From an uncultured Candidatus Saccharibacteria bacterium (GTDB lineage Bacteria; Patescibacteriota; Saccharimonadia; Saccharimonadales; EFPC-124): a DNA stretch of 51,122 bases. The position numbers and the translations under genes were made by a program. Each line of letters starts with the position of its first letter. Positions within the stretch are counted from its first letter, which is position 1. The DNA lies in assembly GCA_964405095.1 (NCBI GenBank), contig CAYOML010000007.1, positions 1 through 51,122 on the forward strand, in the 5' to 3' direction. Under the pieces are notes generated by a model that was given only the letters and a program-made list of their open reading frames with translations, was not told where the DNA came from and ran no database searches. Positions 1 to 46,691 of the stretch are shown here, one piece after another.

Positions 1-55
1 AGGACACTAGGTTTTCATCCTGGCAACCCGGGTTCGACTCCCGGTGGGGTCACCA
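1..55 (+). tRNA. 3' portion of tRNA-Glu (anticodon TTC) with encoded CCA; anticodon arm, 4-nt variable loop, T-arm (CCGGG/TTCGACT/CCCGG), acceptor 3' strand + A + CCA
   Basis: T-loop GTTCGACTCC consensus and a CCA end are visible. The anticodon stem CTAGG/CCTGG has one G-U pair. The anticodon loop is TTTTCAT, so the anticodon is TTC. The 5' half lies outside the window. Confidence 0.7.
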
Positions 56-33278: not shown

Positions 33279-33578
33279 TAAATAAGTTGTACACAGTCAT
33301 AAATTGACATAACCGTCAATAGTCGGTAAAATACATACATACACTATATGGAGCGCGGAGTTTAGGCTTAAAGCGGCTGTAAAGTGTTCTTCCTTGTAAT
33401 GTCGTAAGAGATGTCTGAACACGTTATAACTAATATATAAAGGTCGACACATCTCGGTTCCAGTGGTGGGGAAGAAAGACATACTAGGAAGTATTGGTTA
33501 CAGTGGTAACACTGCAATCTGGAGACGTATATTCGCACTAATTCGCTTCAGGGCCATGCCCTGGATAGGCCTGCAAGT

Positions 33579-34667
33579 GTGCTTAAAGCTCAGGCACTTG
33601 CTGATGCAGCCGGCAGAAGCACCGCTCGCGTGCGCTCCAAAGCCAAGCGTCTTAACGCTGCGCTGATTGGTTCGCATGTAGCTGTTGTGGCCGGCATTGT
33701 GGGTGTGATTGCTTTTGGCTATCGCGCCCCGGTTGAGGCTTCACCGAGTCTGGCTTCGCAAAATGTTATTGAACAAGGCGATCTTTCGGTTGACCAAATA
33801 GCTGCTGCCACGGTGGCTGCTAACGTTGCTTCGACTCTTGATTTATCTATTGAAAATAATGTTCAGGATCTAGCCGGTACTTTAAGCGTACAGGCCGAAT
33901 TGGCCCAAACCGACAACACATTCCTATCTAAGCCCCAAATTGTCGAGCTAAACAGTGGTCGTGCTAAGGTAACACCCTATTCTAGCGTTCCGGGCGACAC
34001 CGTCCAGTCGCTGGCCGCCAAGTTTGGTGTTTCAGACGACACTATCCGTTGGGCAAACAATCTGACCAGTGACAACATCATTGCCGGTAAGGCCCTAACG
34101 ATACCTGGTACAACCGGCGTTGTCTATACGGTCAAAGCCGGTGACGACATTGGTTTGTTGGCCGAAAAATACAGTGCCGATAAAGATCGTATCGTAACCT
34201 ACAACGACCTTGAGCTAACTGGCCTGAAGCCAGGTGCGCTGATTGTTATTCCTGATGGCGTTTTACCCGGCAATGAACGCCCTGGTTACCGCCCAGCAAC
34301 ATCGCGCTACAGCCTGACTCGCGTGACAATCTTTGGTGGCAACACTTATGCCTACGGCTACTGTACATGGTATGCCTTTAATCGTCGCGCTGAACTCGGT
34401 CGCCCGGTTGGTAGCAACTGGCACAATGCCAGCACTTGGGACGATTACGCGCGGGCTGCAGGCTTCCGAGTTGACCACTCACCAGAAGCCGGTGCTGTTT
34501 TACAGGACAACTTTGGTTGGAGCAGCTTGGGCCACGTGGGTATTGTTGAACGCGTCAACGCCGACGGTAGTATTTATGTATCCGATATGAACTATGCTGG
34601 CTGGGGCCGCATTTCCTTCCGTACTATTTCTGCCGATCAAGTCACTTCATACAACTACATCCATTAG
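33579..34667 (+). CDS. Secreted LysM-repeat + CHAP-domain peptidoglycan hydrolase (GTG start)
   Basis: LysM-like segments (YTVKAGDDIGLLAEKYSADKDRIVTYN). The C-terminal CHAP domain has the catalytic Cys (YGYCTWYAF) and His (SSLGHVGIVE). Confidence 0.75.
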   Translation: MLKAQALADAAGRSTARVRSKAKRLNAALIGSHVAVVAGIVGVIAFGYRAPVEASPSLASQNVIEQGDLSVDQIAAATVAANVASTLDLSIENNVQDLAGTLSVQAELAQTDNTFLSKPQIVELNSGRAKVTPYSSVPGDTVQSLAAKFGVSDDTIRWANNLTSDNIIAGKALTIPGTTGVVYTVKAGDDIGLLAEKYSADKDRIVTYNDLELTGLKPGALIVIPDGVLPGNERPGYRPATSRYSLTRVTIFGGNTYAYGYCTWYAFNRRAELGRPVGSNWHNASTWDDYARAAGFRVDHSPEAGAVLQDNFGWSSLGHVGIVERVNADGSIYVSDMNYAGWGRISFRTISADQVTSYNYIH

Positions 34668-38982: not shown

Positions 38983-39098
38983 GGTTTCCTCCCTTGTGCG
39001 ATTGAGGTGCCTGGTTGCGGATTATACAATATTCCTGCTTATCAGTCGATAGCCTGAATCTATCTAAACTTACTGTTTTGATGTATACTTTTTGGGTC

Positions 39099-41909
39099 AT
39101 GAGCGACGCAATTGTGGTCCGCGGGGCGCGCGAACATAATCTTAAAGACATTAGTGTTACGATCCCCCGCGATAAATTAGTAGTCATTACGGGCTTGTCC
39201 GGATCGGGCAAGTCTTCTTTGGCGTTTGACACGATTTATGCCGAGGGCCAGCGAAGGTACGTTGAATCACTCAGTTCATACGCCCGCCAGTTTTTGGGCC
39301 TAATGGAAAAACCAGATGTCGACCAAATTGATGGCCTCAGCCCGGCCATCAGTATCGACCAAAAATCTACGAGCCGTAACCCACGTTCGACGGTTGCAAC
39401 CGTCACCGAGCTTTACGACTACATGCGCCTGTTGTTTGCCCGCATTGGTATCCCGCACTGCCCGATCTGTGGTAAAGAAGTTACGCGGCGCACCAACGAG
39501 CAAATTGTCGACGAAATTATGAGCCTGCCACAAGGCGCTCGCCTGATTATCCTGGCACCAGTTGTGGTTGATAAAAAGGGCGAATTTGCCCACATCCCCG
39601 AACAATACACCCGTGCTGGTTTTGCCCGCGCCCGAGTCGACGGCATTATGTACGTGTTGGATGAATTCCCTGCGCTCGATAAAAACAAAAAACACACCAT
39701 CGAACTGGTGGTTGATAGAATTGTCAACAAATCTGAAAACATCAGCCGTATGACTCAATCGACTGAACAAGCTGGCGAGGCGGCCGAGGGCGTCGTGCGC
39801 ATTGTGAATGCCGACGATAACACCGAAAAAGTCTACAGCCAACGCTACGCCTGTGTTGATCACCCCGACATCGAAATCCCGGAACTTGCACCGCGACTTT
39901 TTAGTTTCAACTCGCCACACGGCGCCTGCCCGGTATGCACCGGCCTAGGCTCGAGACTAGAAGTCGACCCAGATATGATCATCAATCCCAATTTGACCAT
40001 TGCCGAAGGTGCCGTTCGCCCCTGGAACCGTGTGCGCATCGATACATGGTATATGAAGCAGATGGCCGCAATGACTGAGACCAATGGTTTTACCATCCAT
40101 ACCGTTCTTAAAGACTTAAGCCCGGAACAACTAAGCAAAGTTTTATACGGTACTGGCGGCGAACGCTACCGCGTAGCACTTAGTGGTGGCCGCAGTTTCG
40201 AAACAACCTTCGAAGGCGTCATTCCTAACTTGGAGCGCCGCTACCGAGAGACCGACAGCGACTTCATTCGCCGCGACATCGAACGTTTTATGCGCGAGCG
40301 CGAGTGTCATGCTTGCCACGGTATGCGCCTCAAGCCCGAGGCTTTGGCTGTAACCATCCAAAAACTTAACATAATGGATATTTGCGTGTTGAGTGTTGGT
40401 GATGCTCTGAAGTTATTTAACTCCGGCTTGCATTTTAGCGAACAAGACTTATTTATCGCCAAGCAGATCTTGCGCGAAGTAAAAGCCCGATTGAGTTTTT
40501 TGGATGATGTTGGCTTGAGCTACATTGCGTTAGGTCGCGCGGCCAATACACTTAGTGGTGGTGAAGCGCAGCGCATCCGTTTAGCAACCCAGATTGGTTC
40601 GGGCCTACAAGGTGTTTTGTATGTTCTCGACGAACCCTCAATTGGTTTGCATCAGCGCGATAACGATCGTTTAATTGCTACTCTCAAGCACCTACGTGAC
40701 CTGGGTAACACGGTGATTGTGGTAGAGCACGACGAAGACACCATAAGGCACGCCGATCATTTAATCGACATCGGCCCTGGCGCCGGTATCCACGGTGGCC
40801 GCATAGTAGCCGAAGGCTCGCCTGCCGAAGTCGAGAGTAATCCCGAAAGCATTACCGGTCGCTACCTAAGCGGTAAGGAAAAAATCGATGTGCCTAAAAA
40901 ACGGCGTAGCGGTAGCGGCAAAATGTTGGTTGTGCGTGGTGCGCGCCAACATAACCTTAAAAATATCGACGTAACGTTTCCGCTAGGTTTACTAATTGTT
41001 GTTTCTGGTGTCTCGGGATCCGGCAAATCGACTTTAGTCAACGACATCATTTCCAAAGAACTATCACACCGTCTTAACCGAGCCAGTGAGGTCGCCGGCA
41101 AACACGACGCCATCGAAGGCCTCGAACACCTGGATAAAGTTATCACCATCGATCAATCACCAATCGGCCGCACACCGCGCAGCAACCCAGCTACCTATAC
41201 CGGTGTATTTACCCCTGTGCGCGAGTTATTTGCCAGCACACCCGAAGCCAACATCCGCGGCTACAAAGCCGGTCGGTTCAGCTTTAACGTGCGTGGTGGC
41301 CGCTGCGAAAACTGCCAAGGTGATGGCGTAATTAAGATAGAAATGCACTTTTTGCCAGACGTATACGTAACTTGCGAAGTTTGCAAAGGCAAACGTTACA
41401 ACCGCGAAGCACTAGAAATTCACTATAAAGGCAAAACCATAGCCGACGTACTCGAAATGACTGTCGAACAAGCCGTTGAATTCTTCCAGAACATCCCATC
41501 AATCGCTCGCAAAATGCAAACACTGGATGAGGTTGGGCTGGGTTACATAAAACTCGGCCAACCAGCTACGACTTTGAGTGGTGGTGAAGCACAGCGTATT
41601 AAACTAGCCAGTGAACTATCGCGTCGTGCCACCGGTCGTACATTGTATATTTTGGACGAACCAACCACAGGCTTGCACGCCGCCGACGTTAAAAAATTAC
41701 TTCATGTCTTGCAGGCGCTAGTCAATACCGGCAACAGCATGGTAATAATCGAACATAACTTGGATGTGGTAAAAAGTGCCGATCATGTAATTGATATGGG
41801 CCCAGACGGTGGCGAAGCGGGAGGCGAAATTCTCGCCGAAGGTACACCCGAAGCGATAGCTAAAAACAAAGCATCATACACCGGCCAATACCTCAAAGCA
41901 ATGCTGTAG
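39099..41909 (+). CDS. uvrA: Excinuclease ABC subunit A
   Basis: Two ABC ATPase modules ([18 protein letters not shown]), zinc-finger Cys clusters and LSGGEAQRI signature motifs. Confidence 0.92.
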
Positions 41910-41918
41910 ATAAATTGC

Positions 41919-42344
41919 TCATACCAAAAGCGGCTCAATATTGTCGCCTACGGGCGTGGGGATATGGTTTTTAAAATCGTAGATTAGTTTTATAAGCAGC
42001 GGATCCTCGAACGCATCTTTTTGAGCGAGCTGTAAAACAGAATCAGGCGAAAACGTTGCAAGCTCAAGCCCGGAATCCTGCAACTGCACTGGTTCGATCT
42101 GGCAGCCGAAAACAAATCGCACTGTTTGTTTGGGCACGTCGCCGTGGGTGACGATCTTAAAAAGGCGCAAAACTTGCGCCCGATAACCCGTTTCTACTAG
42201 CACACATCGCCGAACACATAAGATTGGTCCTTCGCTGCCCTGCAAAACCCTATCTGGCAAACGCCATTTAGACTGTGGGCCCTCACGCACTAAAACTACC
42301 CCGTTTTCCCAGTGAACAATCGCGCTGCAGTGGACATGTGCCAT
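41919..42344 (-). CDS. NUDIX-like small protein (degenerate Nudix box), divergent from the island's first gene
   Basis: Degenerate G..E.......RR..ETGY Nudix-box-like segment. 141 aa. Confidence 0.45.
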   Translation of the reverse strand: MAHVHCSAIVHWENGVVLVREGPQSKWRLPDRVLQGSEGPILCVRRCVLVETGYRAQVLRLFKIVTHGDVPKQTVRFVFGCQIEPVQLQDSGLELATFSPDSVLQLAQKDAFEDPLLIKLIYDFKNHIPTPVGDNIEPLLV

Positions 42345-42371
42345 ACCATTTCCTCGCTACTTGAGCACTAT

Positions 42372-42392
42372 TATGCACAAGGCATGTGCATA
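42372..42392. promoter_or_regulatory. Perfect inverted repeat TATGCACA-N5-TGTGCATA in the divergent promoter region (candidate RHH operator); TTGACT -35-like box 27 nt downstream
   Basis: An 8-bp perfect inverted repeat with a 5-nt spacer lies between the NUDIX-like gene (-) and the first Rcl-RHH gene (+). Confidence 0.45.
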
Positions 42393-42453
42393 TGCGCAAG
42401 GGTTACACAACATTTTTATTGACTTACATCTGTTGGGGTGGTTTGATTAGGGT

Positions 42454-43032
42454 ATGATTGTGAGTTTCTCGGCGAGTTTAAGAACAATTGAACAAGATAT
42501 TGATATATACAAAAAGATTCTTTCTATATTACGCACTTTGGGGTGTTCAATTGCAAACGACTGGGTTGAATCAGCACGGCTTTACCAACTCAATAAATCT
42601 CGTGATAAGCCTGAGCAGGATTGGAGACACTTCTGTGAACATTCAAAGGCAGGTATCGAAAGCTCGGATTTAGCAATAATTGAAGGATCGGGCTTCGCTA
42701 GTTTTGGTGTTGGATACGAAGCGGGCTATGCAATAAAAATTAAAAAGCCGACTTTGATTTTAATAAAAAAAGAGGACATAAAAGTGTCATACGCTGCTGG
42801 TCTTGGCAATGATCTGGTAACTGTTGCCAGCTACACAAACGAGAATCTCGGGCGTATTATCAAGACCTTTGTAAAAGACAATTCAATTCGAAGCAAGGAT
42901 ATGCGTTTTAACTTCGTAATTGACAGACAGATCTACAATCATTTACGTAAAAAATCTTTTCGTACAGGTAAGACAAAGGCGGAAATTGTTCGCGATATAG
43001 TTTTGGAAGATATACACGGAAAAGGTATATAA
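42454..43032 (+). CDS. Paralog 1: Rcl/DNPH1-like (nucleoside 2-deoxyribosyltransferase superfamily) N-domain fused to a C-terminal ribbon-helix-helix (Arc/MetJ-type) domain; catalytic Glu conserved (GVGYEAG)
   Basis: SDLAIIEGSGFASFGVGYEAGYAIKIKKPTLILI compares with DNPH1 ADVVVAEVTQPSLGVGYELGRAVAFNKRILCL. The C-terminus KDMRFNFVIDRQIYNHLRKKSFRTGKTKAEIVRDIVLEDI compares with Arc MPQFNLRWPREVLDLVRKVAEENGRSVNSEIYQRVMESF. Confidence 0.6.
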   Translation: MIVSFSASLRTIEQDIDIYKKILSILRTLGCSIANDWVESARLYQLNKSRDKPEQDWRHFCEHSKAGIESSDLAIIEGSGFASFGVGYEAGYAIKIKKPTLILIKKEDIKVSYAAGLGNDLVTVASYTNENLGRIIKTFVKDNSIRSKDMRFNFVIDRQIYNHLRKKSFRTGKTKAEIVRDIVLEDIHGKGI

Positions 43033-43034
43033 AT

Positions 43035-43604
43035 ATGGTTATTCATCTTACGTGCTCGAGGGAATGTGTTGCTGAAAATATCGGCACACTTAGAAAAATA
43101 ATAAGCATCATTTACGACTTTGGTCATGTAGTTGCGAGGGATTGGATGGAGCCACACTACAGAAATATCCTTAAGAGCAAAAGCTCGGGTACCCCAGTCG
43201 AGGATATTTTCAGGTTGAACAATGAGGCTATAGATCGGGCCGATCTGGTGATAGTTGAGGGGTCGTACAAAAGCTTTGGCAACGGGTTCCAAGCTGCTAC
43301 CGCACTACAAAAAAAGAAGCCACTACTACTTCTTATAAGGCGAGGAAGTGATGAAAGTACTATATCGCGTAGTGCGGTTGACCCCTATCTTATTCGTAAA
43401 GAGTACGATGATACGTCACTCGACAAAATTGTTAAGGATTTCATACAAAATAATACAATGAGAACAAAAGATATGCGCTTCAATTTTGTGGCAGACAGGG
43501 CTACTAGTAGTCATCTAAGGTGGTTATCGTATAAATCTGGCAAAACAAAAGCAGAGGTTTTAAGGAATCTCATATTAGAGGATATAAGAAAATCGGATGA
43601 TTGA
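43035..43604 (+). CDS. Paralog 2: Rcl/DNPH1-like + RHH fusion; Glu position replaced by Gln (GNGFQAA)
   Basis: It starts 3 nt after the paralog-1 stop, so the two are probably an operon. It has the same architecture and the same C-terminal KDMRFNFVADR...GKTKAEVLRNLILEDI. Confidence 0.6.
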   Translation: MVIHLTCSRECVAENIGTLRKIISIIYDFGHVVARDWMEPHYRNILKSKSSGTPVEDIFRLNNEAIDRADLVIVEGSYKSFGNGFQAATALQKKKPLLLLIRRGSDESTISRSAVDPYLIRKEYDDTSLDKIVKDFIQNNTMRTKDMRFNFVADRATSSHLRWLSYKSGKTKAEVLRNLILEDIRKSDD

Positions 43605-43862
43605 GCAAGCAATATCTGTGATCTGTGGCTATACCCCTCCTAGCAAGTAAATGGCGATCGATTTGCTATACTAGCCTTAAAGAGGCAAAAAGATGGGAAA
43701 AAATTACCAGATTCATACGCGATGTTTGGCTTACGATACTACTCCTGTTGATCATGTAGTGTCGGGAACGGAAGATAATCTATGTTTCAAGCCTGTGTTG
43801 GCTTAATCTGTTTGATTGTCTGTTTGAGGAGGGTGGAGATTTAATATAGGTTCTCTTATTCA

Positions 43863-43892
43863 ATGACATGCACCTTGCCTTAGCAGTATAAT
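43863..43892 (+). promoter_or_regulatory. Near-consensus sigma70-type promoter: -35 ATGACA, 18-bp spacer, -10 TATAAT
   Basis: Read directly from the sequence. It lies 14 nt upstream of the GTG at 43906 and 74 nt upstream of the ATG at 43966. Confidence 0.5.
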
Positions 43893-43965
43893 GTAGACAG
43901 GGGGCGTGTGTGAACAACAAAAAGGGCTTTCTTTCAGGTATAAACTGATATATTATTCTAGGTCT

Positions 43966-45399
43966 ATGGGTAAGGTTGCGGTAAATTCTGGTCATATAAA
44001 TATACTTCTAGTGGGAGGAGTTGGTCTTTGGTCGGAGAAAAATCATATTCCCAATCTTGCTGCGTTGAAACAGAGAGGTTATAAAGTGAAATTGGTGGCG
44101 GTTTGTGACATACAAGACCCAGCCCAACATAGCGATCGCAAGAATCTTCAGAAGATGATGAGAGAGGATATGTCCAAGTGGATAAGTGTTTCTAATAATA
44201 ACCCAACGCCACTCAGTCAGCTGGATAAACTTCTCGAGACGGAACCACTTGATCTCGTAATAATTGCCTGTAATCCTGTTGCTCACTTTGGTTATGCTAT
44301 GTGGGCAGTAAAGAATAATCTACATGTTATATGTGACAAACCCTTACTGGACGTCGCTAACTCTGCTAGTGACGTTAACGCTGCAAGAAGAATATGGAGT
44401 AACTATGAGAAACTAGTTGAGGCATATCTTACGGCGAAAAAGGAAACCCCTCATCTAAATTTCAATCTGGTCCTAAGGCGCAGGAGCCTACCCGCGTTTA
44501 CACTCGTTGCTGATCGTCTAAGATACGTAGCTGAGCAATATGGTGCAGGAATCAACCATATAAATATTCTGAATCATGGCGGAATATATAAATACCCTGA
44601 GGAAATGGAAGGTTATGGAGCGCATGATTTCTCCTCAGGTGTTGGTTCCCTCTCACATTCCAGTTACCATTATCTTGATCTCTTCAACTGGTATCTCAAA
44701 AGTGCTAAAGGCCCAGTTAAATATATTGTTCCTCGTCTCACAAATATACTCCGCATTGGAGATTATTTAGATACAGAGGCGTACAAACACATTAAAGCTG
44801 TCAATACACATACTAAAAGTAGTATGAAAAAACTGCCAAAAGAAGTACTCGCATGTGAACTCGACGTAGCATTTAACATTCTTTTTTACGATAAGTCGAT
44901 GCGTCCTGTCGGAGATGCGAACTTCATCGCTAACCACCTTAGCTTCAGCCCTCGCACCAGAGATTTTGAGGCCGGTATAACGGAACCGGCACAATTTGTC
45001 GGAGGCGGAAGAATCTCGCATCTTTACGTGGACATCCATCAATCGGGCCTACAAAATCTACAATTAATAAAAAACGATGTTACCTTTGAAGGCTCCAATA
45101 TATTAGTACAAACGCGCACGCACCCTGGTATTGAAGCGTTAAGCAGTCATGAGACGATCTATTTTGACGATGCATACCGCAATACTGACTATAGTATGGA
45201 GGAGATTCTTAGGTCAGTGGTTGATGCAATTTTGGCCAGACAGTCGGTGATTTCGACAATGATTCCTAGTCTCTTAGACGATAAGGCCAACGCGCAGTTA
45301 TTCGCTAAATTCTATGAAATTGTCGCGCTTGACTATAGTGAGAAGCAAAATAATAAATCGAAAGTATATAAAGCGCAGGATCTAATAGAACTAACCTAA
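43966..45399 (+). CDS. Gfo/Idh/MocA-family NAD(P)-dependent oxidoreductase-like protein (alternative GTG start at 43906)
   Basis: N-terminal Rossmann ILLVGGVGLWSEKNHIPNL...VKLVAVCD...LDLVIIACNPVAHFGYAMWAVKNNLHVICDKPL matches the GxGxxG...D...(E/D)KP consensus of the family. Confidence 0.55.
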   Translation: MGKVAVNSGHINILLVGGVGLWSEKNHIPNLAALKQRGYKVKLVAVCDIQDPAQHSDRKNLQKMMREDMSKWISVSNNNPTPLSQLDKLLETEPLDLVIIACNPVAHFGYAMWAVKNNLHVICDKPLLDVANSASDVNAARRIWSNYEKLVEAYLTAKKETPHLNFNLVLRRRSLPAFTLVADRLRYVAEQYGAGINHINILNHGGIYKYPEEMEGYGAHDFSSGVGSLSHSSYHYLDLFNWYLKSAKGPVKYIVPRLTNILRIGDYLDTEAYKHIKAVNTHTKSSMKKLPKEVLACELDVAFNILFYDKSMRPVGDANFIANHLSFSPRTRDFEAGITEPAQFVGGGRISHLYVDIHQSGLQNLQLIKNDVTFEGSNILVQTRTHPGIEALSSHETIYFDDAYRNTDYSMEEILRSVVDAILARQSVISTMIPSLLDDKANAQLFAKFYEIVALDYSEKQNNKSKVYKAQDLIELT

Positions 45400-45454
45400 G
45401 TTTTGATGCGCTATATGTACTAAACGTTCTGCTGTGTTGTACTATTAGCTCATA

Positions 45455-46039
45455 ATGAAAATCCACTTTGCTGCATCTAAACATAACATTCAAGAAAACA
45501 TTAAGTATTACCGTAGGATTATAAAAGCCATCCACAGTAGTGGTCATACTCTTACGCACGATTGGGTAGATCCGTCATATGAGCTATCGGTAGGAAGCGG
45601 TGATTATTCTGAGTTGGATTGGAACTCTATTTATCGGGAGAACATGGAGGCTCTAGCCCGAGCTGATATAGTGATTGTCGATAACACCGTGAGCAATTTC
45701 GCTGTTGGATATATGGTGGCGATTGGGCTGCAGCATAAAAAACCGACATTGATTCTTTTTCGAAACAAAGCCATCGAGGGCACAATGGCATCTGGGATGG
45801 ATGAGAGTCTGGTTACATTTAAAGAATACGACGACAAGAATCTGGAGAGCATAGTCGAGGCCTTCATAGAAGGGAACAAGATTGACACCAAAGACATGCG
45901 CTTCAACTTCTTCATAGATCGTCCAATCTACAACTACCTACGTTGGGCTGCATACAAAACCGGCAAAACCAAGGCCGAAATTCTCCGCGATCTAGTTTCT
46001 AAAGAAATCGATAAAGCTAACGACGTCAATCAGCTTTAG
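45455..46039 (+). CDS. Paralog 3: Rcl/DNPH1-like + RHH fusion; Glu position replaced by Met (AVGYMVA); best overall match to DNPH1 N-terminal block
   Basis: IHFAASKHNIQENIKYYRRIIKAIHSSGHTLTHDWV compares with DNPH1 LYFCGSIRGGREDRTLYERIVSRLRRFGTVLTEHV. ADIVIVDNTVSNFAVGYMVAIGLQHKKPTLILFRN compares with ADVVVAEVTQPSLGVGYELGRAVAFNKRILCLFRP. The C-terminal RHH is KDMRFNFFIDRPIYNYLRWAAYKTGKTKAEILRDLV. Confidence 0.6.
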   Translation: MKIHFAASKHNIQENIKYYRRIIKAIHSSGHTLTHDWVDPSYELSVGSGDYSELDWNSIYRENMEALARADIVIVDNTVSNFAVGYMVAIGLQHKKPTLILFRNKAIEGTMASGMDESLVTFKEYDDKNLESIVEAFIEGNKIDTKDMRFNFFIDRPIYNYLRWAAYKTGKTKAEILRDLVSKEIDKANDVNQL

Positions 46040-46691
46040 TTCGCCTCCACCCCAGTTTTTGCAGGAGTTTTCTCCTGCTTTTTTCGTTCCGCAAAATATG
46101 GTAAGCAGGTGAAGCTAGGCTAATTACTATTACAGCCAAAATTACTGGCATCACAACCGTCTCTACGCTAATTCCGTGTGCTTTTAACCATGCACCGCTG
46201 TAGTAGCCCAGATATGTTACCAGCGCCACCCACGCAGCTCCACCAACAAGGTTGTACAGCAAAAACCGCCTGTAATTCATGTTGCCAATTCCGGCTACTA
46301 CTGGCGCGAAGGTACGCACCACGGGAATAAACCGCGCTAGTACTATGGTTATCGGTCCGTATTTCTCGTAAAATTTTTCGGCGCGTTCTAGGTTGGATTG
46401 GTGAAATAATACCGAATCGGGTCTGCGGAAAAGGCGCCTGCCAAAACGCCTGCCAAATTCATAACCCACTAATACTCCGCTCACTGCAGCGATGAATAAA
46501 ATAAACACTAATAGGTGAATGTTGATCTGTAAAATACCTTGTTGTGCCAGGATGCCAGCGGCAAATAACAGTGTGTCGCCTGGGAAGAAAAACCCAACTA
46601 ATAGGCCAGATTCGGCAAAAATAATGCCTGCGACGCCAAGCACACCAATGGCACCTATAACTTCGTTTAGTTCTAACCCAAATAGCATCAA
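46026..46691 (-). CDS. DedA/SNARE-associated family membrane protein
   Basis: DedA motif VGFFFPGDTLLFAAGILA and multiple TM helices. Confidence 0.8.
   Translation of the reverse strand: MMLFGLELNEVIGAIGVLGVAGIIFAESGLLVGFFFPGDTLLFAAGILAQQGILQINIHLLVFILFIAAVSGVLVGYEFGRRFGRRLFRRPDSVLFHQSNLERAEKFYEKYGPITIVLARFIPVVRTFAPVVAGIGNMNYRRFLLYNLVGGAAWVALVTYLGYYSGAWLKAHGISVETVVMPVILAVIVISLASPAYHILRNEKSRRKLLQKLGWRRTKAD
46061..46084 (+). terminator. Rho-independent terminator GCAGGAG-TTTT-CTCCTGC + TTTTTT after paralog 3 (lies inside the annotated 3' end of the convergent DedA ORF)
   Basis: A 7-bp stem is followed by a T6 run. Confidence 0.55.

Follow-up and report, generated by a model that had tools for sequence, protein, structure and literature searches.

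The window, by which we mean the whole stretch of 51,122 nucleotides that was analyzed, carries three members of a large, undescribed family of Patescibacteria (CPR) proteins in which a DNPH1-like domain is joined to a DNA-binding ribbon-helix-helix (RHH) domain, and which is likely to act as a switch for variable nucleotide-modifying enzymes. With moderate confidence, and from sequence and predicted structure, we favor reading these NDT-RHH proteins as CPR-specific one-component transcription regulators that respond to a ligand through a pseudo-DNPH1 sensor and regulate their own expression. Of the roles weighed in a preliminary description of this DNA, that of a nucleotide-sensing regulator is also the one best supported, specifically by a palindrome, by the neighboring genes and by a recurring trio of genes.

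Domain folds and spread of the family

The three paralogs (189–194 aa; 35–38% mutual identity) occupy exactly the reading frames in which three proteins of ~190 aa with a common two-domain architecture had been described (Table 1). With respect to the N-terminal domain, Pfam PF05014 scored 30.5 bits against paralog 1, above its cut-off of 28.8; paralog 3, at 25.7 bits, fell below it, and the sole Pfam match for this domain of paralog 2 was a weak one of the YtoQ type. The top match of a profile of all three paralogs was to rat and human DNPH1/Rcl (residues 3–138, E=4.7e-10), and when paralog 3 was modeled with AlphaFold, its best structural matches were DNPH1 crystal structures (Foldseek E=2e-8, probability 1.0). 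These two results bear out the earlier assignment of the N-domain as DNPH1/Rcl (NDT-like).

At the other end of the protein, the NikR RHH domain ranked first, in the correct register, against a profile of the family (E=0.035), and the alignment puts R, N and F/V at the R3, T5 and T7 positions of NikR. Among 26 family C-termini, 13 match Pfam RHH_1 (best 3e-6) and 8 match RHH_3. AF2 returned a low-confidence strand followed by two C-terminal helices, which is expected for an obligate dimer modeled as a monomer. By the Pfam matches and the register of the NikR match, the C-termini are RHH domains of the CopG/NikR type, in agreement with the earlier claim of an RHH fold. Two variants are present in the window, with paralog 1 carrying a "class II" sequence, RFNFVIDRQIYNHLR, and paralog 3 a "class I" sequence, RFNFFIDRPIYNYLRW. 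Averaged over pairs of members, identity amounts to 61% in the RHH versus 34% in the N-domain; conservation within the family is thus highest at the DNA-binding end, which is under the stronger constraint.

The family comprises 861 clusters (50% identity) under E=1e-10, with members in several CPR lineages. None of the searched copies of Pfam, NCBIfam, PADLOC and PHROGs contains a model dedicated to it, and no publication on it was found in the literature, which supports the earlier view of the architecture as undescribed.

Table 1. Positions of the features discussed, in window coordinates
Feature	Position	Strand	Remarks
Nudix-like gene	41919–42344	-	141 aa; degenerate Nudix box; divergent from paralog 1
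Candidate operator	42372–42410		inverted repeat TATGCACA (42372–42379) / TGTGCATA (42385–42392)
Putative promoter, paralog 1–2 operon	42419–42447	+	-35 TTGACT 42419–42424; -10-like TTTGAT 42442–42447
Paralog 1	42454–43032	+	192 aa; DNPH1-like N-domain nt 42454–42894; RHH from nt 42895
Paralog 2	43035–43604	+	189 aa; class II RHH from nt 43467
Promoter-like ATGACA-18-TATAAT	43863–43892	+	11/12 consensus; 5′ of Gfo-like gene
Gfo/Idh/MocA-fold oxidoreductase	43966–45399	+	477 aa from ATG 43966; ORF also opens at GTG 43906
Paralog 3	45455–46039	+	194 aa; RHH from nt 45890
Terminator-like hairpin then T-run	46061–46078	+	3′ of paralog 3

The uvrA–dedA slot and its enzymes

The three genes lie in a slot bounded by uvrA and the Nudix-like gene on one side and by a DedA/VTT-domain gene on the other. 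GC content is 0.38–0.43 at 42400–46000 versus 0.49–0.52 in uvrA and the downstream genes, and the low-GC stretch with its three paralogs, Gfo-like gene and Nudix-like gene had been placed correctly in the preliminary description. Its designation as an island did not hold, and acquisition as foreign DNA was ruled out: the uvrA–dedA slot is conserved in Saccharimonadia, its GC content is below that of the flanks in 22/23 species, and no flanking repeats or tRNA were found at the slot. Likewise, no integrase-sized ORF was evident there, the small antisense ORFs not having been searched individually. Depending on the species, the slot carries 1–5 copies of the NDT-RHH family together with a changing set of enzymes. 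From this synteny it appears to be a conserved, low-GC site prone to gene flux, with recent import excluded as a reading. The conserved gene order, together with the absence of phage hits, also speaks against mobility.

Within this slot, paralog 3 is the "core" ortholog, which adjoins dedA in most Saccharimonadia and is present as a single copy per genome at a constant chromosomal position. Paralog 2 looks like a diverged orphan copy; its start codon lies 2 nt past the stop codon of paralog 1, and the two genes would therefore form an operon.

It is very improbable that these genes constitute a toxin–antitoxin, addiction or anti-phage defense module acting through nucleotide depletion or modification, in which the RHH would be an antitoxin-type autoregulator. 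RHH domains are frequent in antitoxins, retron RcaT-type NDT effectors also have a DNA-binding domain, and the variable slot resembles a defense island; in addition, there was a weak RelB-like NCBIfam match (E=0.12). Opposed to this are the null results for all five proteins in PADLOC and for the three paralogs in PHROG, the finding of no full-length copies in phage and plasmid collections, the absence of any toxin, reverse transcriptase or nuclease partner, the single core copy at its fixed position, and the lack, in most members, of the catalytic Glu on which an NDT toxin would depend. The null searches leave this earlier proposal unsupported.

The genes beside NDT-RHH genes are genes of nucleotide metabolism. 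TS-like/methyltransferase fusions occur in 14/43 loci, and further neighbors include MazG-like, CYTH and Nudix proteins, thymidylate kinase, an RNR fragment, a PfkB kinase, an ITPase-like NTPase, PRTase+HAD, a GTP cyclohydrolase I-like protein, several methyltransferases and a homologous Gfo-like enzyme; a sulfotransferase-like gene and kinases are also found in the slot. In distant CPR lineages, NDT-RHH, Gfo-like and Nudix genes are again found together as a trio.

The Gfo-like protein of the window matches PF01408 (40.9 bits), and the structures matched by its AF2 model (pLDDT 90.6) are those of Gfo/Idh/MocA sugar 3-dehydrogenases (E about 1e-15), the best being DgpA, glucuronide 3-dehydrogenase, 1,5-anhydrofructose reductase, levoglucosan dehydrogenase and WlbA, so that the original assignment to this fold is upheld. 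Its CDKP (EKP-type) motif is conserved, with no variation at D, K and P and almost none at C. The family is rare and mainly of CPR (37 homologs in 5.8 billion proteins), and in 6 distant CPR loci a 27%-identical homolog is divergent from adjoining NDT-RHH genes. The near-consensus promoter noted earlier for this gene corresponds to a promoter-like 11/12 site; it is weak evidence by itself, as such sites are no commoner in the region than shuffling predicts.

The Nudix-like protein scores 22.5 bits against Pfam NUDIX (cut-off 21.1) and lacks the canonical GX5EX7REUXEEXGU box, reading ...CVRRCVLVETGY instead; housekeeping Nudix genes in related loci retain the box. Its proposed role as a "sanitizing" hydrolase is therefore unlikely, and this part of the originally favored scheme has to be revised. 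The divergent pairing of a Nudix-like gene with a Glu-type NDT-RHH gene recurs (loci L005, L008, L013, L050, L056 and L057, and the contig with P0310).

A cassette for the biosynthesis or tailoring of nucleoside or nucleotide analogs, in which the Gfo-like, Nudix-like and NDT-fold proteins serve as enzymes or carriers and the RHH is incidental, seems to us clearly unlikely. In its favor, members of the Gfo-like family are likewise found in clusters that lack NDT-RHH genes (a Micromonospora NRPS/radical-SAM cluster, and CPR clusters with aminotransferase, APH-like kinase, PLP decarboxylase and aaRS-like genes), the slot holds methyltransferases, the sulfotransferase-like gene, kinases and PRTase+HAD, and in the puromycin cluster an NAD-dependent nucleotide dehydrogenase is found together with a Nudix enzyme and methyltransferases. 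However, the content of the slot varies by species while the NDT-RHH gene stays, and there is therefore no conserved pathway. Moreover, the Nudix-like protein here is without catalytic residues, the DNA-binding end is the best conserved part of the family, and a palindrome travels with it.

A palindrome beside NDT-RHH genes

The candidate operator lies ~28 nt 5′ of the Nudix-like start codon and just 5′ of the paralog 1 -35 box, and contains two half-sites in addition to the inverted repeat, TATGCGCAA (42391–42399) and TTACACAA (42403–42410). In the whole window TGTGYATA has two matches, which are the two arms of the 42372–42392 palindrome recognized in the preliminary description. Related loci carry a homologous palindrome at the equivalent position, and the motif class, a TGTRYA-N-TRYACA inverted repeat, accompanies the NDT-RHH gene across phyla, often abutting the -35 box of the regulator from the upstream side. 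In distant CPR loci the palindrome class is present in 14/25 non-redundant adjacent intergenic regions versus 0/50 other promoter regions (p=8e-9), and in Saccharimonadia in 15/83 adjacent regions versus 1/191 others (p=8e-8). Similarly, TGTGYRYA precedes 20/29 divergent partner genes versus 4/322 other genes (p=5e-22), ending 1–48 nt, mostly about 30–34 nt, ahead of the partner start codon.

Upstream of the NDT-RHH genes themselves in Saccharimonadia, TGTGYRYA is not significant (3/73) and the palindrome is weakly enriched (9/62 versus 7/212, p=0.003). No motif was seen 5′ of paralog 3 or of the Gfo-like gene when the window sequence there was read by eye rather than scanned. In Saccharimonadia the partner gene appears to have a TGTG-TATAAT -10 element that overlaps the motif, so part of the signal could be an unusual promoter and not an operator.

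Half-site variants follow the strand of the RHH. ATGCACA or TGTACA sites occur in three loci with an RFH strand and in one with an HFH strand, RFNLE-strand loci have TGTACA, and RFN-strand loci mostly have TGTGTATA; this co-variation is inexact and reflects few independent events, as the window and L005 combine an RFN strand with TGCACA/TGCGCA half-sites. Half-site spacing ranges from N1 to N14, in converging or diverging orientation, which does not fit easily with one rigid mode of binding.

The putative promoter of the paralog 1–2 operon was derived from an alignment of five homologous intergenic regions, across which ATATTGA and GTG.TTT.AT blocks are kept, and was not called by a consensus scan. 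Its -10-like box ends ~6 nt before the paralog 1 ATG, and the transcript may therefore be leaderless.

The former active site and a model for regulation

The block of the N-domain that had been described as catalytic looks so in paralog 1, which retains Ser-Leu-Arg and FGVGYE with Glu89 (nt 42718–42720) at the nucleophile position. In paralogs 2 and 3 the description fails, this position being Gln86 (nt 43290–43292) and Met87 (nt 45713–45715), respectively, and two residues of the DNPH1 triad, Tyr and Asp, are missing from all three proteins. Of 118 full-length cluster representatives, 75 have Q at the nucleophile position, 9 have E and 34 have another residue, so that about 92% lack Glu; among 92 locus members the counts are Q 61, E 12 and M 6. 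Distant CPR members, WWE3 among them, also have Gln there, as G-[YH]-Q, and the residue is therefore conserved rather than decaying. An E-to-Q change at this position kills turnover in NDT/DNPH1 enzymes. Judged by these residues, the N-domain of the family is most likely a mainly ligand-sensing, mostly inactivated DNPH1-like domain.

RHH domains form dimers and contact DNA via paired β-strands. In the NDT-RHH proteins the DNA-facing residues would be the Arg and Asn of R-F-N-F-F/V, and the candidate target is the TGTRYA-N-TRYACA repeat at the promoter of the regulator or of its divergent partner, which in the window would be 42372–42392, in the intergenic region that separates the Nudix-like gene from paralog 1. 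A (deoxy)nucleoside 5′-monophosphate-like ligand, possibly a modified pyrimidine nucleotide, would fill the former active site and alter DNA binding, and this would change the expression of the adjoining, highly variable nucleotide-modifying genes. In the window, the genes controlled would be the pseudo-Nudix gene, the paralog 1–2 operon and perhaps the gene for the Gfo-like sugar 3-dehydrogenase-type enzyme. The analysis shows the domain folds, the state of the key residues, the size and spread of the family, the synteny, the kinds of neighboring genes and the association with the motif, whereas binding to the motif, the class of ligand, the direction of regulation and any heterodimerization of the paralogs are inferred.

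Paralog 1 may still hydrolyze its ligand, since the Glu and the Ser-x-Arg phosphate loop are kept, and the Glu-type subfamily to which it belongs could be a real enzyme. More broadly, we consider it possible, though unlikely, that the family consists of bifunctional enzyme-regulators, in which an active NDT-fold domain performs N-glycosidase or base-exchange chemistry on (modified) nucleotides that the enzymes encoded next to it make or process, and the RHH provides autoregulation or a DNA tether. The scarcity of Glu among the full-length representatives, the Gln and Met of paralogs 2 and 3, the missing triad residues and the effect of E-to-Q on turnover all argue against such activity. Nonetheless, Glu is kept in 32/47 matches of the paralog 1 subfamily, of which 20/32 also have the DNPH1 Tyr (motif Y-F-S-A-S-x-R), and the Ser-x-Arg loop is nearly always present; WWE3-type loci have, as divergent partners, Ppx/GppA proteins fused to a Glu-containing NDT domain; and DNPH1, according to PDB molecule names, acts on 5-hydroxymethyl-dUMP. 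PutA is a bifunctional enzyme-regulator of this kind, and the occurrence of TS-like enzymes beside proteins of the NDT fold is reminiscent of the MilA/MilB pair in mildiomycin biosynthesis.

An NDT-RHH protein family confined to CPR bacteria

The three paralogs encoded between uvrA and dedA belong to a family of fusion proteins, here termed NDT-RHH, in which a DNPH1/Rcl-like N-terminal domain is followed by a C-terminal ribbon-helix-helix (RHH) domain. The ORF positions given in the preliminary description were matched exactly by our ORF listing, and the architecture it proposed, with paralogs, an RHH domain and a Gfo/Idh/MocA-like gene (the Gfo-like gene), was correct. The paralogs are mutually 35–38% identical, with the last 45 residues far better conserved than the rest.

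Features of the window segment between uvrA and the DedA/VTT-domain gene
Feature	Length (aa)	Position	Strand	Remark
uvrA		39015-41909		
Nudix-like ORF	141	41919-42344	minus	adjoins uvrA
Paralog 1	192	42454-43032		
Paralog 2	189	43035-43604		start 2 nt past stop of paralog 1
Gfo-like ORF	477-497	43906/43966-45399		between paralogs 2 and 3
Paralog 3	194	45455-46039		
DedA/VTT-domain gene		46026-46691	minus	

The finding is more general than is visible from the window sequence alone. Specifically, paralog 3 returned 651 matches among 90%-identity clusters, almost all of 187–197 aa and mostly from Saccharimonadales, while a family profile run against 1.84 billion representatives returned 1941 clusters at E<1e-3 and 861 (clusters at 50% identity) at E<1e-10. 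Nearly all of these clusters are full-length (~190–210 aa), and one distant member comes from candidate division WWE3. The family is found in CPR bacteria only. No published description of the fusion was found in full-text literature searches, and the copies of Pfam, NCBIfam, PADLOC and PHROGs that we searched hold no dedicated model for it, which agrees with the earlier suggestion that the combination is undescribed.

Within the comparison loci fetched for their family genes, mean pairwise identity is 61% for the RHH domain versus 34% for the N-domain, and three groups can be distinguished. The core group, which includes paralog 3, is present once per genome beside dedA and has an RHH domain reading RFNFFIDRPIYNYLRW. 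A secondary clade occurs as tandem arrays with as many as five copies (loci L018, L019, L020, L026, L031 and L049). The third, Glu-type group carries the RHH variant RFNFVIDRQIYNHLR, includes paralog 1 and is always divergent from a Nudix-like gene that lacks the Nudix box (the pseudo-Nudix gene). Paralog 2 is an orphan that combines the second RHH variant with a Gln-bearing N-domain.

With respect to the N-domain, only paralog 1 exceeds the PF05014 gathering threshold of 28.8 bits (30.5 bits, with 25.7 for paralog 3 and no match for paralog 2). A profile of all three paralogs, searched against PDB sequences, aligns with rat and human DNPH1/Rcl over residues 3–138 (E=4.7e-10), and Foldseek with an AlphaFold model of paralog 3 (34 homologs as input, pLDDT 82.7) returned DNPH1/Rcl crystal structures for all of the top 50 matches (E ~2e-8, probability 1.0, target-normalised TM 0.6–0.8). 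The N-domain thus belongs by fold to the NDT/DNPH1 superfamily, with its flavodoxin-like NDT fold, as had been proposed from the sequence.

The catalytic block claimed for this domain stood only in part. The nucleophilic Glu of the G-V-G-Y-E motif (E93 in rat) corresponds in the DNPH1 alignment to E89 in paralog 1, where it looks catalytic, but to Q86 in paralog 2 and M87 in paralog 3, and the triad residues Tyr and Asp (rat Y13 and D69) are replaced in paralogs 1–3 by S/H/H and S/N/N, respectively. The phosphate-binding Ser (rat S17) is present as the invariant S8 and is found in ≥90% of the aligned family. Of 118 full-length family representatives, 75 carry Gln at the nucleophile position and 9 carry Glu, and distant members retain G-[YH]-Q at this site; the Gln is therefore a conserved family feature rather than a sign of decay. 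Judged by its catalytic residues, the N-domain does not look like an active DNPH1-type N-glycosidase, and hydrolase activity is unlikely for most family members.

Paralog 1 may nonetheless retain catalysis. Glu is kept in 32 of 47 Glu-type matches, 20 of which also have the Tyr within a Y-F-S-A-S-x-R motif; members outside the window often keep this Tyr, with Ala at the triad Asp position. These residues bear on the alternative that the proteins are bifunctional enzyme-regulators. It would apply mainly to the Glu-type, and given the prevalence of Gln elsewhere we regard it as unlikely for the family.

In the paralog 3 model, a low-confidence stretch at residues 147–154 is followed by helices at 156–169 and 173–192, as is to be expected when an obligate-dimer RHH is modelled as a monomer. 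A profile built from 26 family C-termini ranks the NikR RHH first, in register through the strand, helix and G-x-S/T turn (E=0.035), and in Pfam scans RHH_1 matches 13 of the 26 C-termini (best E 3.1e-6) and RHH_3 matches 8. Paralogs 1–3 themselves gave no Pfam RHH match at E up to 1 when scanned full-length, nor did the paralog 3 C-terminus scanned alone, and the sole direct RHH-type signal for the window proteins is a RelB-like NCBIfam match (E 0.12). Because of this, RHH membership of the window copies rests on their homologs. Through these family members and the in-register NikR alignment, the strand-helix-turn-helix pattern of the C-terminus supports its assignment to the RHH fold, in line with the earlier claim. 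In the same alignment, the R, N and F/V of the family strand R-F-N-F-F/V fall on NikR R3, T5 and T7, which we take to be DNA-facing positions.

The uvrA–dedA slot and its changing enzymes

Most of the Saccharimonadia loci fetched for comparison keep the order uvrA, variable slot, dedA, L25 and ABC transporter. The flanks and the NDT-RHH gene are constant, and the other slot genes turn over between species. The window segment has a GC content of 0.38–0.43 across ~42400–46000 versus 0.49–0.52 on either side. This dip is real, but the distinct island earlier read into it did not hold up: for 22 of 23 species, the slot (for example L018, 5198–9002) has a lower GC than its flanks, the difference being -5.7 points on average and up to -12. 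The segment has no flanking or border repeats, no tRNA and no Rfam match. A horizontally acquired genomic island was accordingly rejected, the slot being syntenic and low in GC across species. It looks instead like a long-lived gene-flux hotspot. Elsewhere in the window, Rfam identifies a lysM-TM7 RNA, a Saccharibacteria (TM7) marker, at 33387–33524 on the plus strand (72.8 bits versus a gathering score of 61.5), upstream of an ORF at 33579–34667, as well as the 3′ part of a tRNA gene at 1–52 (+), truncated by the window start (32.8 bits); ARAGORN found no complete tRNA anywhere in the window. The names of the protein homologs agree with the RNA marker in assigning the window to Saccharimonadia.

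The conserved chromosomal position also argues against a toxin–antitoxin or defense module, a role that the preliminary description had entertained. None of the five window proteins has a PADLOC match, no toxin family was detected among them (Pfam, PADLOC), the paralogs have no PHROG match, and the neighbors are enzymes. By tblastn, no copy occurs in 50,697 phage records, and plasmids give just N-domain matches to ordinary NDT/DNPH1 genes. Type II antitoxins, moreover, are small, whereas the paralogs are ~190 aa and carry an enzyme-fold domain. We consider such a module highly improbable.

The gene between paralogs 2 and 3 encodes a protein that scores 40.9 bits against PF01408 (cut-off 24) and that has only marginal sequence matches in the PDB, such that its assignment was settled by structure. 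Its model (pLDDT 90.6) gives full-length structural matches at E ~1e-15 to sugar 3-dehydrogenases and reductases of the Gfo/Idh/MocA type, among them DgpA, glucuronide 3-dehydrogenase, 1,5-anhydrofructose reductase (AFR), levoglucosan dehydrogenase and WlbA. A C-D-K-P (EKP-type) motif is conserved, with D, K and P invariant and C nearly so. As judged from the model, the protein is a Gfo/Idh/MocA oxidoreductase with an NAD(P) Rossmann domain bearing the EKP-type motif and a C-terminal alpha/beta substrate domain, and the earlier assignment is upheld by both the Pfam score and the structural matches. Its family is rare (37 matches in 5.8 billion proteins) and also occurs in secondary-metabolite-like clusters without NDT-RHH genes; in distant CPR loci, a 487-aa homolog (27% identity, E=7e-28) is encoded divergently from NDT-RHH. 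The 360-bp gap between paralog 2 and this gene (43605–43965) is unusually long, the equivalent in L005 being 85 bp. It contains a 37-codon ORF (43693–43806) with an AAGAGG-like site ahead of it and a hairpin at 43789–43804. The ORF is conserved in none of the fetched loci, and the gap shows no family-gene remnant and no similarity to other loci.

The claim of a NUDIX gene beside uvrA survives only at the level of fold. The window protein is a marginal match to Pfam NUDIX (22.5 versus 21.1 bits), but the Nudix box GX5EX7REUXEEXGU with its catalytic Glu is absent from it and from its four orthologs, unlike the housekeeping Nudix genes of related loci, which match the box. The closest public relative of the window locus is L005 (DATLJN010000037.1), with uvrA, pseudo-Nudix, Glu-type NDT-RHH, Gfo-like and core NDT-RHH genes; it belongs to a MAG labelled Magnetospirillaceae. 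Mis-binning of this contig is probable, as both its gene content and its synteny are typical of Saccharimonadia.

Across species, the slot genes encode SAM methyltransferases from three or four unrelated families and a sulfotransferase-like protein, as well as a ComF-like PRTase together with a HAD phosphatase. Also encoded there are GTP cyclohydrolase I-like, PfkB kinase and CYTH proteins, a thymidylate-synthase-like (TS-like) protein with an ITPase-like NTPase, the Gfo-like enzyme and an APH-like kinase. Among WWE3 and other CPR lineages, a TS-like/methyltransferase fusion directly follows the NDT-RHH gene in 14/43 loci and is itself followed by a MazG-like or CYTH protein; the alternative downstream gene is a canonical Nudix, and the divergent upstream gene is a Ppx/GppA-NDT fusion or the 487-aa Gfo-like homolog. 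Thymidylate kinase, QueC-like and ribonucleotide reductase genes also lie near distant NDT-RHH genes. The NDT-RHH/Gfo-like/Nudix trio noticed in the window recurs across phyla, and the recurring theme among the neighbors is (deoxy)nucleotide metabolism and modification. A tailoring cassette with the NDT-fold proteins as pathway components is a rival reading that we think quite unlikely.

Several further genes were observed at these loci. At L058 (6630–7829), L060 (6614–7882) and L062 (642–1913), the gene that comes immediately after the distant NDT-RHH gene encodes a TS-like/SAM methyltransferase fusion, the length range being 399–423 aa. Proteins of ~415–430 aa joining a Ppx/GppA-type domain to a C-terminal, Glu-keeping NDT-like domain (..EIGYA..) are encoded on the minus strand in L058 (4570–5826), L042 (4657–5904) and L052 (4651–5949), and in several phyla such fusion genes form divergent pairs with NDT-RHH genes. 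Absent from the window are two small families. The first, fam2 (~180 aa and lacking an RHH domain; for example L001 5794–6327, L012 4345–4869, L051 5313–5864), is encoded divergently from core NDT-RHH in 24 Saccharimonadia loci in two synteny contexts, with a strikingly conserved ATATGTGTATAATATAC element in its promoter. It has no Pfam match, and because its hhalign match to the NDT-like domain is weak (probability 63%), fam2 proteins were rejected as plain NDT members; in manual register, the nucleophile position is occupied by Gln in two and by Gly in the third of three members. The second, fam13 (91–121 aa), contains Cys and the motif ..WYQYH..D..LRND.SWR.W.., has no Pfam match and lies on the minus strand between a secondary NDT-RHH paralog and dedA in 7 loci (for example L001 9222–9587, L018 8423–8698, L021 7205–7543).

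A palindrome that travels with the family

The palindrome at 42372–42392 pointed out in the preliminary description is real, its arms TATGCACA (42372–42379) and TGTGCATA (42385–42392) being the only two TGTGYATA matches in the 51 kb of the window. Further copies of the half-site lie at 42391–42399 and 42403–42410, with a -35-like TTGACT directly downstream. No obvious site was found when the window sequences upstream of paralog 3 and of the Gfo-like gene were read by eye. With respect to paralog 1, the best -10-like element (42442–42456 region) ends ~6 nt ahead of the ATG and no convincing Shine-Dalgarno sequence was found, suggesting that its transcript may be leaderless. This short layout is shared by L008, and the leaders in L005, L013 and L050 are 35–45 nt.

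Homologous intergenic regions of Saccharimonadia carry TGTGTATA-N9-TATACACA in the same position. A first motif, RYRCACAAGG, was too narrow (10 matches, 3 near family genes) and was replaced by a half-site analysis. In Saccharimonadia, TGTGYRYA occurs upstream of 20/29 divergent partner genes, that is, pseudo-Nudix genes or fam2, versus 4/322 other genes (p=5e-22), the motif ending 1–48 nt, mostly ~30–34 nt, ahead of the partner start codon. The partner gene has a TGTG-TATAAT-like -10 element with which the motif overlaps, so that the motif may in part be a promoter signature. In an independent set of non-redundant intergenic regions fetched with distant CPR members, the inverted repeat TGTRYA-N0-14-TRYACA is present in 14/25 regions next to an NDT-RHH gene versus 0/50 other promoter regions (p=8e-9); the Saccharimonadia count for the same repeat is 15/83 versus 1/191 (p=8e-8). 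Distant examples include TGTGTATATCATACACA (L064, L082, L088), TATGCACATAATGTGCATA (L077) and TGTACAacgatTGTACA (L095–L097), often with a TTGTCA -35 box a short way downstream. The half-sites differ from locus to locus in spacing and orientation.

The half-site also appears to vary with the RHH strand. Loci with strand RFH or HFH have ATGCACA or TGTACA sites, RFNLE loci have TGTACA and RFN loci mostly TGTGTATA, a co-variation that is suggestive, with few independent events and exceptions that include the window. Together with the co-travelling palindrome, it lends indirect support to the predicted dimerisation via paired strands and the predicted sequence-specific DNA binding by the RHH domain.

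Taken together, these observations make it reasonably probable that the paralogs are one-component RHH regulators with a pseudo-DNPH1 sensor, TGTRYA operators and variable nucleotide-modifying genes as targets. The nucleotide-sensing regulators favored in the preliminary description are thereby the best-supported reading, given the co-travel of the palindrome and the nucleotide-related neighbors. In such a regulator, the DNPH1-fold domain would bind a nucleoside monophosphate-like ligand that it is mostly unable to cleave, and the RHH domain would bind TGTRYA inverted repeats at its own or a partner promoter, with autoregulation probable, and would control a variable set of nucleotide-modifying genes. 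That tandem paralogs have diverged in their sensor domains but carry near-identical RHH heads suggests common operators and different ligands, perhaps with the formation of heterodimers.

A more specific version of this regulator model can be put forward only tentatively. The TS-like/methyltransferase fusions with MazG-like or CYTH proteins possibly constitute a modified-pyrimidine nucleotide pathway. In a CPR-wide system, a Gln-type pseudo-DNPH1, expected to bind its ligand without cleaving it, might sense a modified pyrimidine deoxynucleotide, conceivably a 5-hydroxymethyl- or 5-methyl-type dNMP produced by these fusions. Acting through its RHH domain at the TGTRYA palindrome, the protein would control a set of genes that varies between species and that serves to sanitise the nucleotide pool, to salvage nucleotides or to hypermodify DNA bases. 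If so, a genome with tandem paralogs could respond to several ligands by way of near-identical DNA-binding heads.

Significance and relation to known systems

Patescibacteria/CPR depend on salvaged nucleotides and, to our knowledge, cannot make nucleotides de novo; we also know of almost nothing about gene regulation in these organisms. CPR biology would gain a widespread family of putative regulators for which an operator and a class of ligand can be predicted, and nucleotide-supply sensing becomes open to direct experiment. If the sensor reading is true, a naturally "substrate-trapping" DNPH1 fold would be a new sensor domain among one-component regulators. The rare Gfo-like dehydrogenases, the pseudo-Nudix proteins and the fusions of TS-like and methyltransferase domains recur as partners, a hint of nucleotide modification chemistry yet to be charted.

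In terms of known systems, the N-domain shares its fold over ~140 residues with DNPH1/Rcl (PDB 4FYH, 2KLH, 8QHQ), a 2′-deoxynucleoside 5′-phosphate N-hydrolase that acts as a 5-hydroxymethyl-dUMP N-hydrolase. Common to both are the N-terminal strand with the phosphate-loop Ser, the G-x-G-Y-(E) helix and the K-P-x-L strand. Unlike DNPH1, NDT-RHH proteins add a C-terminal RHH domain, have Gln or Met in place of the Glu except in paralog 1, lack the triad Tyr and Asp in the window copies and occur only in CPR. NikR is the closest solved structure to the C-terminal profile, with looser parallels in MetJ and PutA (RHH with a ligand or enzyme domain). A NikR-like logic, with an obligate-dimer RHH, a separate dimerising effector domain and binding to spaced inverted repeats, is predicted for NDT-RHH, in which, however, the domain order is reversed, with the RHH C-terminal, and the effector is a nucleotide-enzyme fold rather than an ACT-like metal site. 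The match being marginal (E=0.035), the likeness is an analogy of design and not membership.

For the retron effector RcaT, an NDT-like domain has been described together with a DNA-binding domain (PMC8632793), the latter lying C-terminally. This combination is common to NDT-RHH but the context is not: the NDT-RHH nucleophile is mostly lost, and the genes occupy a chromosomal, syntenic position and not mobile elements. The window segment contains no reverse transcriptase ORF and no PADLOC or Rfam (msr/msd) match.

In NrtR (Nudix plus winged helix) and NrdR (ATP-cone plus zinc ribbon), a degenerate nucleotide domain serves as the sensor of a transcription factor. NDT-RHH shares this concept of a degenerate nucleotide domain that would sense and control nucleotide metabolism genes, but the folds differ and no sequence relationship is known. 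In peptidyl-nucleoside biosynthesis, MilB and BlsM are active CMP N-glycosidases that have the Glu and no DNA-binding domain, and MilA is a TS-like CMP hydroxymethylase. An NDT-fold protein next to a TS-like enzyme is likewise seen in the distant CPR loci with TS-like fusions and in L021; unlike MilB and BlsM, NDT-RHH carries the RHH domain and usually Gln, and the window has no TS-like gene. Overall, we class the NDT-RHH proteins as putative ligand-responsive RHH regulators, unrelated to NikR, NrtR and NrdR, whose sensor domain is new and whose distribution is lineage-specific.
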